Positions 19,009-24,343 are shown, counted from the first letter of the stretch. The stretch: 64,000 nt of DNA from Novakomyces olei (GCA_016906335.1 JADEYG010000012.1:620001-684000), one strand, 5' to 3'. Notes: a model not told the origin generated them from the letters alone. Made by a program: numbers and translations.

Positions 19009-22000
19009 ATGGAAGACTTCACCAGACAACTTGACGCGGCGCTTGCTCAAGCATCAGTGCCGGACACGGCAAAAGTAAAAGAAGCCACAAAAGTACTTAA
19101 GGACCAATTCTATGTGCACCCTCAAGCACTCCCTGCGCTGCTGCAGGTCATGCAGTCGGGCTCCAGCTTACAGGTAAGGAACAATGGTGACTGAGCACAA
19201 AACCCGTAATAAAATTTAAAAGAATAAATGACTGGAAATTTGATCAAACGCAGTCCCAAGTTGTCTGCTGTAGTCCAAACTGACAGCAACAGACGCGACA
19301 ATTGGCAAGTATAGAAGCACGAAAACTTTGCCCAAAACATTGGTCGTCCTTGGACGATCAAATTCGACAGCAATTACGGCAAAGCCTTTTACAATTTGTC
19401 ACTGCAGAGCCCAGCAAGCCTATCAAGCATTCGGCTACACGTATAATTGCAGAGATTGCAAACTTAGATTATGCTACCGGCAGCTGGCAAGAGCTACCAC
19501 AATTTGTACAGCAATGTGCTACTTCTTACAATGTAGCAGATCGTGAGATTGGCATTTACATTATTTTCACGTTGTGCGAAGTTTCTGAAGACATTTTCGG
19601 TGATCGGCTGGGGGACATGTTCCGTCTGTTCTCTCATACACTAAACGACCCCGATTCCCATGAAGTACGTACCAACACAGTACTCGCTATCGGCTCCATA
19701 ATTCAGTTTATGGACGGTGGAGACAAGGAGCTGGTAAAAATGTTTCGAGAATTACTGCCAATGATGGTCAACGTACTTGAGCAGACGATTGAGGCAGATG
19801 ATGAAGGCACTGCTCGTCAAATTTTCGATGTCTTTGTGGACTTGTTGCTCGTTGATCCCGCCCTCATCTCTAAAAACTTGAGTGATTTGCTGCAGATTAT
19901 GTTGCAAATTGCACAAACCCAAAGTCTTGATGATGAATATCGTAATATGGCGCTTTCCTTCATCAGCTCATGTATCCGTTTCAAATCACGAAAAATACAA
20001 ACCATGAAAGTAGGCACTTCCCTCACTATGGCTTTAATGGAAATCGGTGCGGAGGAGGATACACCTGACCCTGAGGACGATTGTCCTTCTCGTCTGGCTT
20101 TACGGTGTGTTGATTTACTGTCTACCTCACTTCCTCCGTCACATGTATTCGAGCCTTTAATGAACGCTTTACCTACCTATGCTCAGTCACCAGACCCGGG
20201 CCACCGTAAAGCGTGCCTCCTGGCTATAGGTGTAGCCATTGAGGGCGCTAGTGAATTCGCCAGTACGAAGCTACAAGTGTTGCTACCCATTGTAGTGCAT
20301 GGCCTTCAGGACCAGGAGCCTGTAGTACGGAGGGCTGCACTATTAGCTCTAGGCCAGCTCGCAGAGGAGCTGCCCACTGATATTGCACAGCATCATGCGA
20401 CCCTACTACCTCTCGTCTTTGAATTAATGTCCTCTCAGGGCATTCAGGTGGGCAAGGCTGCCTGTATCTGTATAGACACGCTATTGGAATCTCTAAAGTC
20501 GGAAGACTGTGCTGCTTATTTGCCACAGCTAGTTCCCAGACTGAACGAGCTACTTGCCGCCCCGGATGCTCCAACAGACGTCAAGCTGAGCGTGGCTGCT
20601 GCTATTGGGTCGGCGGCTCACTCAGCCGGAGCCGCTTTCACTCCGTACTTTGACCCTACGTTTCAGACTTTACTTCCCTATTTGCAAATCGTTGAGGGAG
20701 ATGAGCAGCTTGATTTACGTGGAGTTGTAACGGACTCTTTAGCTTCAGTGGCAGTCGCAGTTGGACGGGAAACGTTTGCTCCCTTTATTCATGATACTGC
20801 TAAACTCGTCTATGAGGGAATGAAGCTGGGCCATTCGCGGTTACGTGAGTGCTCCTACTGCTTTTTCTCAGCCATTGCCTCGGTTTACAAAGAGGAATGC
20901 GCCTCTTTTATTGATTTAGTTGTAAAAGGTATATTGGAAGCGCTGGACCAGGAAGAATCAGACGATCTAGGCGGTGATGAGGTGCAAGACGTCTTGGGTG
21001 GCGCTGGCGATGATGATGACAGTGACCCAGAAATCGACGAAGACAGTGTTGAGAAACAAATAAAGGTCAATTCTTCTATCGCCATGGAAAAGGAGGTGGC
21101 TGCGTCTGCCTTGGGTGAGATTTATTCTAAAATTAAGGCCCCATTTGAGCCATACATTGAACAGTCAGTTCAAGCGCTAATCGCTCTGACTGCTCATTAC
21201 TACTCGGGAGCACGAGCAGCGGCTATCTGCTCACTGTGGCAGATTGTACGGACAATGTATGAGTGCTCCGGCCAGCACTGGGTCATGGGTAACGCGGAAA
21301 GTGCCGTTCTGCATCCAAATGTGCAGGCTGTAGTTGACGAAGTTCGTGCTTGCTCTTTACAAATAATAGAGCTCGAAGATGAAAGGTAAAGAAATTTATT
21401 TATTGTTTTTTAAGGTCAAACTTATTTGCATAAATTGTACAGGTTCGGTGGAACATGTGATGATTGCATTTCGCTAACCCAGCTCACTCAGATGCAAATG
21501 CAATTGATGTGAACGCGAATTTTGTATCTGATACTACCTAAACCTGTTTTCTTTTTGGATTAATCTTGTTTACTATATATCATATAGTATTCACAAAAAT
21601 TCTTTTCATTCTTATAATGTATTTATTATATTTTATTTTGAGCTCTGCATTCGTCTTTAATGTATTTAATTTACTGATTATTTGTTTTCCCAAATTTGTC
21701 GTTCCTTGTACCTTTACAGCACATTGTCTAACTCAAACAGAAAAGTGCTTTCGCCCTTGTTTGACAATCTGGCAGACACGGCCAAAACGTGTGGGCCTGC
21801 AGTTTTTGGCAACGATATAGAACAGATATGCACTGTAGTGCTGCAAGTTTTACAGAAGAAGCACATGTGCCAGGTAGAAGGTTTCCTGGGCGAGGCAGAC
21901 GAAGAAGATGAAAATGCAGTTGATCCAGAGGATGAGGAGGCTGCTGAAGAAGAAACGATGCTGATTGACAGTGCATGTGATGTTTTAATAGCTCTCTCCA

Positions 22001-22680
22001 TCACGTTAGGCGAAACATTCGCCAATAATTTCCGGGTTTTCCTTCCGCTCTTGATCAAATATGCTAGCAGTGTGAATCCAACTGAGCGAGCATTAGCAGT
22101 CGCCTCTATCGGTGAGATTGCAGGCGGCCTTAAAGCCGGAGTTACACCTTTTACAGAGCAAATTTTACAGATATTTATGCGCTGCTTGTCAGATAATGAA
22201 GCAGAAGTACGGAGCAACGCTGCATACTCTGTAGGCCTATTATGCCAGTATACCCAAGCAGATATCACTGGGAATTACGCAGCAATCTTTGAGAAATTGC
22301 AGCCTCTTTTCGCCCCCGGGAATGCGAAAAACTCTACGGATAATGCCTTGGGATGCATTTCAAGGATGATTATGGCGAACGCACAAGCAATCCCGCTGGA
22401 CCAGGTACTGCCGTCGATGATAAAGTACTTGCCAATCACGCAAGACTACATGGAAAACACTCCGATATACAAGATGATTATTGGACTGTACAAGCAAAAC
22501 AATGCTGTAATACTGCAGCTGACAGAGGCGCTAATACCCGTATTTGCTTCAGTATTAGGCCCACCAGAGCAGCAGTTACGGCGCGAGATTAGGCACGAAC
22601 TGCTTGAACTGGTGCGTGCTTTGCATACCCAATTCCCCACGTTAATACGCGCAGATTCCAGCCTGCACCAGTTGTTGTAG
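19009..22680 (+). CDS. KAP123: Importin beta-4 / Kap123 karyopherin; introns ~19174-19292 and 21386-21740
   Basis: HEAT repeats, QLASIEARK, CPSRLALRCVDLLSTSLPPSHVF, VNSSIAMEKEVA, EVRSNAAYSVG, DNALGCISRMI. Confidence 0.92.
21455..21533 (+). ncRNA. Intron-encoded box C/D snoRNA, snR71/U29-like (guide for LSU rRNA A2946, S. cerevisiae numbering)
   Basis: Box C GTGATGA 21457-21463, D' CAGA 21489-21492, box D CTGA 21528-21531. The 12-nt guide AACCCAGCTCAC is complementary to LSU GUGAGCUGGGUU. Flanking stem ACAGGTT/AACCTGT. Confidence 0.85.
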
Positions 22681-22851: not shown

Positions 22852-24125
22852 TCAACGAGCCGCTTGAGTTGCCCGGGCAAACTGCTGCAATTGTCGTAGA
22901 GCCGATCCAGAACGGATGGACTGGAGGGAAAGCTCGACTCCATGCTTCCAGTCTCTGGCAGCACCGGCAATTACAAGCAAGGCTGCAGAGTTTACAAGCA
23001 CAAAGTCTAAAACGGCATTTCCCTCTGGCAGTTCGCCCTGTAAAAGCTGAAGCAGTGTTTGGGCATTCTCGTCCGGTGTACCTGATTTTGCTTCGTCCAG
23101 CGAGTGCCTTTGCAGACCAAAATCGGCCGGCTCGATTGTAGACTCTTGCACTTTGCCGTCAATAATGCGCCAGACGTTTGTGGGCCCGGCAATACTGATT
23201 TCGTCCAATCCCTCAGCGCCGCAGACGACCATTGCACGATGGCTGCCGAGTAAGTGCAGGGCCTCTGCAAAAATCCGTCCTAAATCCGGCGTGGCTACTC
23301 CCACCACCCGTGCCGCCAGCCGTGCAGGATGGATAAGGGGACCAAGGAAATTGAAGATGGACGGGATGCCCAGCTGCTTGCGCACGGGGGCCACGTGCCT
23401 CATTCCAGGGTGGAAAACTTGTGCAAAAAGGAAGCAAAAGGAAGACTCGTCCAGTATGCGTTTCAGAGTATTCGGGTGCACTGCCGTTACATCACACCCC
23501 ACAGACATGAGCAAGTCTGCGCTGCCACTCGATGAGCTGGACGCTTTGTTTCCGTGCTATAAAGCGTTAGAATAAAAAGATTAAAAGGAACAAAAAGATT
23601 AAAAGAGTAGAAAAGAGGAATACACATGAATAACATGAATACACATGAATATGAACAATAGTTGGAAAGAGCCAAAGTAAAAGGCAAATGTATGGCGCAG
23701 GTTTATGAACGAGATACGAAACAATTGCAGGCAAAAAAAAAAATAGAAAAAAATTAATAAATAAACAGTACCTTGCAAACTCGACACCCCGCACCAGAGG
23801 CAATTATAGCAGCGCTAGTAGAAATATTAAAAGTATTTTGATTATCGCCACCAGTGCCGACAATATCGACAAACCCTTCGCCCCATGCAGCTTGATCATG
23901 TTCGATTTGCAGCGCACGTGCCCGCATTTCTGTCGCGGCAGCCGCGATCACTTGCGGGTCGCGGTCAATACGAGAAATACGTAAAGCGACCAGTAAACCG
24001 GCGGCGAGAATCGGGTCCACTTCTCCCGTGGCCAATTCGCCCACACATTTTGCAATTTCCGTTGGCGCTGCGCTGCCGGTGCGATCGATGGCTTTAATCA
24101 CCGCTCTTACTCTTTTGTCTGACAT
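22852..24125 (-). CDS. TRP4: Anthranilate phosphoribosyltransferase; intron 23771-23557
   Basis: VDIVGTGGDNQNTFNISTS, CK|HGNKASSSSSGSADLL, FNFLGPL, GLDEIS. Confidence 0.95.
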
Positions 24126-24343
24126 CTCGACGATAAGGGCAAACGACAGTTTCCCAATACTTTGACATTATACATTAATGTTATTATTTAGAAAAATATA
24201 AAAATATTGTCAATATTGTCAATATTTAAATATTATTCAAATAATTTTGTTGTAGTATGTTAATATATTATATATAGTACATAAAATGATGATAATAATA
24301 ATCGTAATTCAAACGCTTGACCATTCACCAATACCACAAATCA

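Follow-up and report, generated by a model that had tools for sequence, protein, structure and literature searches.

Intron 2 of the KAP123 gene, in the 64,000-nt stretch of DNA analysed here (the window), very probably holds a single-guide box C/D snoRNA that is orthologous to snR71/U29 and of the same type as N. crassa CD27 and S. pombe snR71. The family, its target and its intronic placement are already known, and the RNA would be a routine methylation guide; the link to the KAP123 host is apparently old and undescribed. The host gene has the following structure.

19009..19173, + strand: KAP123 exon 1, with the ATG at 19009
19174..19292, + strand: KAP123 intron 1, 119 nt, its acceptor placed from motifs and frame
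19293..21385, + strand: KAP123 exon 2, best PDB match Kap123 (5vch, E 2.9e-100)
21386..21740, + strand: KAP123 intron 2, the snoRNA host, 355 nt, phase 2 in codon 753 (EDE[R]KV)
21728..21732, + strand: likely branch point CTAAC of KAP123 intron 2, from its sequence
21741..22680, + strand: KAP123 exon 3, through the stop codon

Splicing out introns 1 and 2 yields a stop-free Kap123 of 1065 amino acids, and intron 2 has the form GTAAAG...CTAAC...CAG, in agreement with the 355-nt KAP123 intron described in a first-pass annotation of this DNA. Comparison with solved structures placed Kap123 at the top (E 2.9e-100), with importin-4 at 8e-49; together with the intact spliced frame, this bears out KAP123 as the snoRNA host. 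Among 30 database proteins, Schizosaccharomyces Kap123 comes closest (48-50%), followed by a Pneumocystis protein (44%). An alternative acceptor for intron 2 at 21719 is in frame, but it adds seven residues and its junction score is not the best, and it was rejected. Over the parts of KAP123 that they cover, the DNA contigs X2 and X3 agree with the window letter for letter. Intron 2 had also been called far longer than most introns nearby, put at 40-100 nt; a crude motif scan of the window proposed 64 introns with a median of 180 nt, 24 of them no longer than 120 nt; many are likely false calls, and the scan is too noisy to judge that range for the other introns. A convergent neighbour gene with a Glycos_transf_3 domain, presumably anthranilate phosphoribosyltransferase-like by name, occupies window positions 22852-24167 on the minus strand and ends about 170 nt from the KAP123 stop.

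Within intron 2, the parts of the snoRNA are arranged as follows.

21439..21451, + strand: 5' arm of the external 12-bp stem
21452..21534, + strand: predicted mature snoRNA, about 82-85 nt, its ends set from the box positions and the read ends of the M. oryzae orthologue
21457..21463, + strand: C box GTGATGA
21470..21474, + strand: 5' arm (TTCGC) of internal stem H1, from the centroid fold and pair counts
21476..21487, + strand: D' guide AACCCAGCTCAC, 12 nt, Watson-Crick complement of LSU rRNA, followed by T at 21488
21489..21492, + strand: D' box CAGA
21493..21502, + strand: D'-C' hairpin H2, 3-4 bp in the window
21504..21510, + strand: C' box TTGATGT
21515..21519, + strand: 3' arm (GCGAA) of internal stem H1, identical with the first five bases of the segment previously annotated as a D-box guide
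21528..21531, + strand: D box CTGA
21534..21547, + strand: 3' arm of the external stem

Each of the C, D', C' and D boxes, the guide, the T behind it and the stem arms was found where the first-pass annotation had put it. The enclosing stem was annotated correctly as far as it went (ACAGGTT, 21439-21445, with AACCTGT, 21541-21547), but not at full length: GGTGG (21447-21451) and CTACC (21534-21538) add 5 bp, giving an external stem of 12 bp (7 + 5), and the fold has a z of -2.52, matched by four of 200 shuffles. The element has 42% GC, compared with 19% and 25% in the flanking parts of the intron. The C box, of the RUGAUGA form, lies near the 5' end and the D box CUGA near the 3' end, at a spacing within the 60-100 nt expected of box C/D snoRNAs, and the D box is invariant in all 24 aligned sequences, although it was absent from the pattern by which the relatives were found. 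The internal D'/C' region consists of CAGA, the closing hairpin H2 with compensatory changes, and TTGATGT. This C'/D' pair has both sheared G-A pairs and a closing stem, features said to be required for Snu13 binding (PMC8413462, available text).

The D' guide forms 12 of 12 Watson-Crick pairs with the LSU rRNA of the same genome, at a site identical in all four LSU copies read, and none of 200 shuffled guides reached a match of equal length. Antisense elements of box C/D RNAs comprise at least 10 nt before D or D', as this 12-bp guide does. The fifth base before D' (the +5 position, T21484) pairs with A2923 in the LSU numbering of this genome, the A of GUGAG, and the register matches that of CD27 and of the RF00479 consensus; the earlier assignment to the snR71 site (yeast Am2946) thus holds. 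In yeast, snR71 is the guide for Am2946, a position within the peptidyl transferase centre (PMC8307265, as far as its text is available), and U29 and snR71 are placed in a common clan, CL00051 (PMC3511168, likewise). Three places on the two strands of the window perfectly complement rRNA over 12 nt and continue with CWGA, and of these only the snoRNA has a C box upstream. The exact word CCCAGCTCAC is present at 18 places in the genome, 11 of which are rDNA read backwards; C and D' boxes accompany only the one in the window, and a search by exact guide word gave no second snoRNA candidate in the genome. The rDNA units themselves are dispersed (11 places on five contigs, C2, C5, C7, C9 and C12 of G000), and in the unit read a 5S gene stands behind the LSU gene on the opposite strand. 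The 3' stem arm (window 21541-21550) also complements the rRNA sequence ACAGGTT just downstream of the target; the arm is outside the predicted mature RNA, relatives do not share it, and the complementarity is probably due to chance.

It is rather unlikely that the guide serves a second position by directing methylation of the C two bases downstream (the snR69 site) as well. Such a double role was proposed for N. crassa CD27, which is listed for Am2904 and, through a shifted D' box, for Cm2906, and its sequence from guide to D' is the same as in the window; a separate snR69 gained no support from the genome, where a C box accompanies none of the 19 exact AAACCCAGCTC places. That search used one word only and would miss a guide with one change, however, fission yeasts carry a separate snR69, and the Cm2906 assignment of CD27 is a prediction in the available text (PMC2780460).

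Relatives were collected from metagenome contigs by a pattern scan for C box, guide and D'. At least 117 stretches matched, and 116 loci (L numbers) were examined, of which 31 among the matches listed were classed as window-type by eye and by model score; the other 85 were set aside, 43 of them being one repeated coding-like match and the remainder chance matches or snoRNAs of budding-yeast or other type. Because the pattern demanded them, the C box, guide and D' are conserved among these loci by construction; the D box, C', stems, host and intron position are independent of the pattern. Viral contigs that were searched gave no matches. A same-strand Kap123 match by tblastn was found at 22 of the 31 window-type loci and at none of the 85 others, among the matches listed, and the 22 represent about 18 lineages once near-duplicates are merged. 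Both exons are present in 21 of these 22, and all 21 introns lie at the position and phase of the window's intron, one having been placed by eye: automatic placement set 20 of them at phase 2 within the codon that follows a conserved acidic residue; at L021 the best-scoring donor lay 18 nt further upstream, and the GTATGT donor was taken instead. The last KAP123-hosted locus, L062, has the same donor and ends before the acceptor. In the protein alignment the intron falls at column 534, phase 2, in the window and in 18 of 18 tree loci, at 32-39% protein identity to the window, so that the intron joins the position-conserved snoRNA hosts of the RPL7/NOG2 type. Sought in the orthologous intron of relatives, as the first-pass annotation had advised, boxes, guide register and host intron all proved common (boxes C and D' and the guide by construction). 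KAP123 had been regarded there as an unfamiliar host; host it is, but not one peculiar to this DNA, being the commonest among the filamentous-ascomycete loci listed (22 of 31).

The KAP123-hosted loci fall among named proteins of Sordariomycetes, Leotiomycetes and Dothideomycetes. A FastTree was built from 36 Kap123 fragments, omitting L107, L116 and L117 as shorter than 250 aa and L062 because its locus ends before the acceptor. It joins the window to Schizosaccharomyces (0.958) and to Pneumocystis (0.950), and the organism therefore most likely belongs in Taphrinomycotina. Taphrinomycotina and Pezizomycotina together span the root of Ascomycota. Since two independent arrivals of the snoRNA at one codon and phase are unlikely, descent from the Taphrinomycotina/Pezizomycotina ancestor would account for the shared site, and the KAP123-snR71 pairing probably dates to early Ascomycota, a reading drawn from a FastTree of one gene (support 0.95-0.96) and from a single genome of Taphrinomycotina.

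No Kap123 was found at nine of the 31 loci listed (about five lineages), three of which have <900 bases on both sides. We infer that the snoRNA has left KAP123 in S. pombe, in budding yeasts and in some filamentous lineages. At L031:952-1043 (+ strand), a snoRNA near-identical to those of L030 and L049 lies not in KAP123 but in a gap, resembling an intron, within a DUF4211 gene, a probable case of the intron having moved together with its snoRNA. Three near-identical snoRNA copies stand in tandem at about 290-nt spacing at L099:294-962 (+ strand). At L040:1130-1246, L083 and L086, the D'-C' hairpin is about 25 nt longer and no Kap123 lies within the locus, and a Pfam search on five frames of L083 gave no match. 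The snoRNA at L059:2994-3085 (+ strand), with the same sequence in L027 and L108, is flanked by a gene for a TRAPP component and by a sugar transporter on the opposite strand; its surroundings resemble an intron, with no recognised host.

A search of the whole window with Rfam, the check proposed in the first-pass annotation, returned no matches at gathering score; the only Rfam match on intron 2 is snR71 (RF00479), at 15.8 bits and E 8.5 against a cut-off of 60. By curated membership (at least 60 bits) the window snoRNA thus falls outside RF00479. The same model, run against 15 loci, placed the budding-yeast-type L092, L014 and L028 above the cut-off and L087 at 59.9, and it matched none of the four filamentous-fungus orthologues L049, L013, L084 and L107 at E up to 0.5. 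The low score therefore reflects a Rfam model that misses this branch of the snR71 family, fission-yeast-like and filamentous members alike among those tested, and to take the lack of a Rfam hit as a refutation would mislead. A covariance model built from 23 relatives, with the window excluded, gave the window snoRNA 66.3 bits (E 5.6e-11, a rough value); over the 64 kb it returned three matches, the runner-up at 12.8 bits. The homology extends beyond boxes and guide, as the spacer and the segment after C' also resemble, by eye, those of CD27 and S. pombe snR71. On its sequence, the window snoRNA is thus a putative member of the snR71/U29 orthologous group rather than one to be filed as a RF00479 match. 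That the element is a degenerate or silent copy, or that its motifs came together by chance, is extremely improbable. The low Rfam score, the two other places in the window at which guide and CWGA occur alone, and the unusual distance of the intron 2 branch point from the snoRNA would fit such a copy, but all four boxes and both internal stems are intact inside the 42% GC island, the independent model scores it highly (66.3 bits), and a search of the genome by exact word gives no further candidate. At L052:2839-4454, six or more box C/D matches lie clustered, one of them a snR71-like copy at 40.7 bits.

The single-guide reading further depends on the segment before the D box, which the first-pass annotation had called a guide with no recognisable target. 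Against LSU, SSU and 5.8S rRNA its best match is 7 bp, a length reached by 124 of 200 shuffles (null mean 7.3), and against U1, U2, U4, U5, U6 and 5S it is at most 6 bp. An 11-bp match with two G-U pairs, at L006:2579 in the spacer before the SSU gene, was set aside. Positions 3-8 before the D box are 33-50% conserved over 24 sequences, and GCGAA pairs internally as the 3' arm of H1. Stem H1 (TTCGC/GCGAA) appears in the centroid fold and is 71.4% paired over the 24 sequences with two-sided changes in two of five pairs, its outer pair being present in seven of the 24; H2 is 96.9% paired over the same number with two-sided changes in three of four pairs. Overall covariation is 0.388 compared with 0.188 +/- 0.029 for shuffles (reached by none of 500), and slid controls gave at most 0.188, for a structure drawn by eye from the same sequences, whose relatedness inflates such scores. 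RNAalifold recovered H2 and not H1. Alignments excluded the long-hairpin loci L040, L083 and L086 and near-duplicates. TTCG and GCGAA segments are also present in the snR71 of S. pombe and S. japonicus and absent from S. octosporus and S. cryophilus. Most likely, the D-box region is not a guide, and the slot is idle and partly folded into H1.

A double-guide snoRNA, in which the 13 nt before the D box direct a second methylation in a tRNA, an mRNA or a pre-rRNA spacer, is highly improbable. The slot is usable in this family, as L013, L047, L058 and L076 carry AGAGGCTGTTT, which forms 12 bp with LSU at A1838, and the genome holds five other exact 12-nt complements of the window's D segment. Five are to be set against about 2.9 expected, however, and none falls inside a Rfam match; no second antisense element with a target was found in rRNA, the five snRNAs or 5S, and the weak conservation of the segment and its use by H1 speak against a guide as well. 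In the clade of L013:2994-3084, L047:553-642, L058:2954-3043 (- strand), L066 and L076:2994-3084, the snR71 orthologue has gained AGAGGCTGTTT as a D-box guide, whose target sequence (at LSU A1838) also serves the D' guide of N. crassa CD28 (Am1845, U95 homologue, as far as the source text extends). This is, as a comparison of sequences would have it, a guide switch into the idle slot.

The setting of the snoRNA within its intron distinguishes the window from its relatives. From D box to branch point there are 199 nt in the window versus 49-63 nt in 21 relatives. In mammals, a long stem rescues snoRNAs that lie far from the branch point, and the external stem of the window, at -15.4 kcal/mol (reached by none of 200 shuffles), is far stronger than the flanking duplexes of the 21 relatives (-9.1 to +0.4, median -3.1), of which one also beat all 200 shuffles. 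The optimum distance between snoRNA and branch point is given as about 50 nt (PMC8162545, accessible part), close to that of the relatives, and the 12-bp external stem, absent from the relatives, probably makes up for the long distance. A literature search found no published statement of stem rescue for distant snoRNAs. The 21 relatives, with a short distance and no stem, and the window, with a long distance and a 12-bp stem, offer a natural comparison for snoRNA processing. Cryptic splice sites also lie inside the snoRNA.

21474..21491, + strand: cryptic branch point CTAAC (21474-21478) and acceptor CAG (21489-21491) inside the snoRNA

It is highly unlikely, but would be of interest, that the snoRNA also controls its host, such that failure to form a snoRNP brings the cryptic sites into use and leads to destruction of the KAP123 message through NMD. 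CTAAC and CAG stand at ordinary spacing and come first after the donor, with their use the intron would measure 106 nt and translation would end after five codons (EDERCKCN*), and there is precedent in SNORD86 in NOP56 and SNORD2 in EIF4A2 (PMC11028025, available text). Against this, CTRAY occurs at the cryptic branch-point position in none of the 31 relatives listed, and the motif is largely set by the guide and D' sequence. In its full form, carrying the same slight chance, the proposal would make the intron a sensor: snoRNP assembly and the external stem would hide the cryptic sites and allow productive splicing, and a shortage of box C/D proteins would lead to the NMD isoform. Such a sensor, if real, would tie ribosomal-protein import to snoRNP supply and form a fungal parallel to NOP56/SNORD86.

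For the methylation guide preferred here, general box C/D biology suggests the following biogenesis. The snoRNA would be transcribed within the KAP123 pre-mRNA; splicing, debranching and trimming would free the RNA of about 82-85 nt from intron 2; Snu13, Nop56, Nop58 and Nop1 would bind it; and Nop1 would 2'-O-methylate LSU A2923, equivalent to yeast Am2946 in the peptidyl transferase centre, with the D-side slot presumably left idle and partly folded into H1. Kap123 is regarded as the main importer of ribosomal proteins (PMC5098186, available text), so that co-transcription would link guide and importer. If the snoRNA has resided in this intron since the Taphrinomycotina/Pezizomycotina ancestor, its output would have been tied to that importer throughout, and hosting by KAP123 may, by analogy with RPL7 and NOG2, bring a benefit of co-expression.

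Published small RNAs point to expression of an orthologue. For the M. oryzae importin-beta gene MGG_16711.7 / MGG_05869.6, 17 'intron sense' small RNAs are listed (PMC3658920, Table 4), reported as stress-associated and, in the available part of that paper, not called a snoRNA. By eye, two of the 17 start 5 nt before the C box (with spacer), 15 span the hairpin arm, C' and AAAGCG, and three of those 15 reach the D box plus 2-5 nt, with 17 and 20 bases identical to L025 and L117. The reverse qPCR primer of MGG_16711.7 encodes TEINR, also by eye, the residues just behind the conserved intron. These intronic small RNAs can be re-read, as far as the paper is available, as snoRNA fragments, an identification that is strong but, since the reads do not include the guide, indirect.

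Among known systems, the closest is N. crassa Nc CD27 (EU780951), which is listed as a snR71/U29 homologue, is also intronic and carries a D' guide for the same LSU adenosine (Am2904); it resembles the window in the guide-CAGA register, the D'-C' hairpin and AACGCG after C', and its guide is given as 15 bp versus 12 in the window (PMC2780460, available text). No host gene name for CD27 was found in the accessible text and supplements of that paper. S. pombe snR71 (SPSNORNA.19) is likewise intronic, with a D' guide for 25S-Am3040 and TTCG...GCGAA around the guide, and differs in having CGGA as D' where the window has CAGA (PMC4138321, accessible part). S. cerevisiae snR71 (RF00479, in clan CL00051 with SNORD29) shares the target, Am2946, and the guide-D' register. 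In the budding-yeast-type loci L092, L014 and L028 the guide contains a U, an (A)UCCAAC element is present, and no Kap123 was found nearby. S. pombe Kap123 is encoded on a contig of 4,539,804 bases, which we take to be chromosome II. As the snR71 of that species is on chromosome I (PMC4138321, accessible part), it has a different host. Extra pairing and insertions at C' have been noted in snR71 orthologues (PMC3116282, available text).

No paper found in a literature search states the KAP123-snR71 pairing, which may be implicit in genome annotation; the host names tried do not occur in the accessible parts of PMC2780460, PMC3596301, PMC4138321 and PMC8476143, a term search of the available text of PMC5824354 gave no host-gene passage, and neither kap123 nor snR71 appears in the text and supplement of PMC8476143 at hand. 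Loss from two model yeasts may explain why the pairing has gone unremarked. The introns of RPL7 (snR39/snR59) and NOG2 (snR191) are likewise position-conserved snoRNA hosts in ribosome-biogenesis genes, argued to permit co-expression (PMC8476143, available text). They differ from the window in host and in snoRNA family, and the intron described here adds a fungal case in which a snoRNA has probably been kept at one intron position of a ribosome-biogenesis gene across the depth of Ascomycota.
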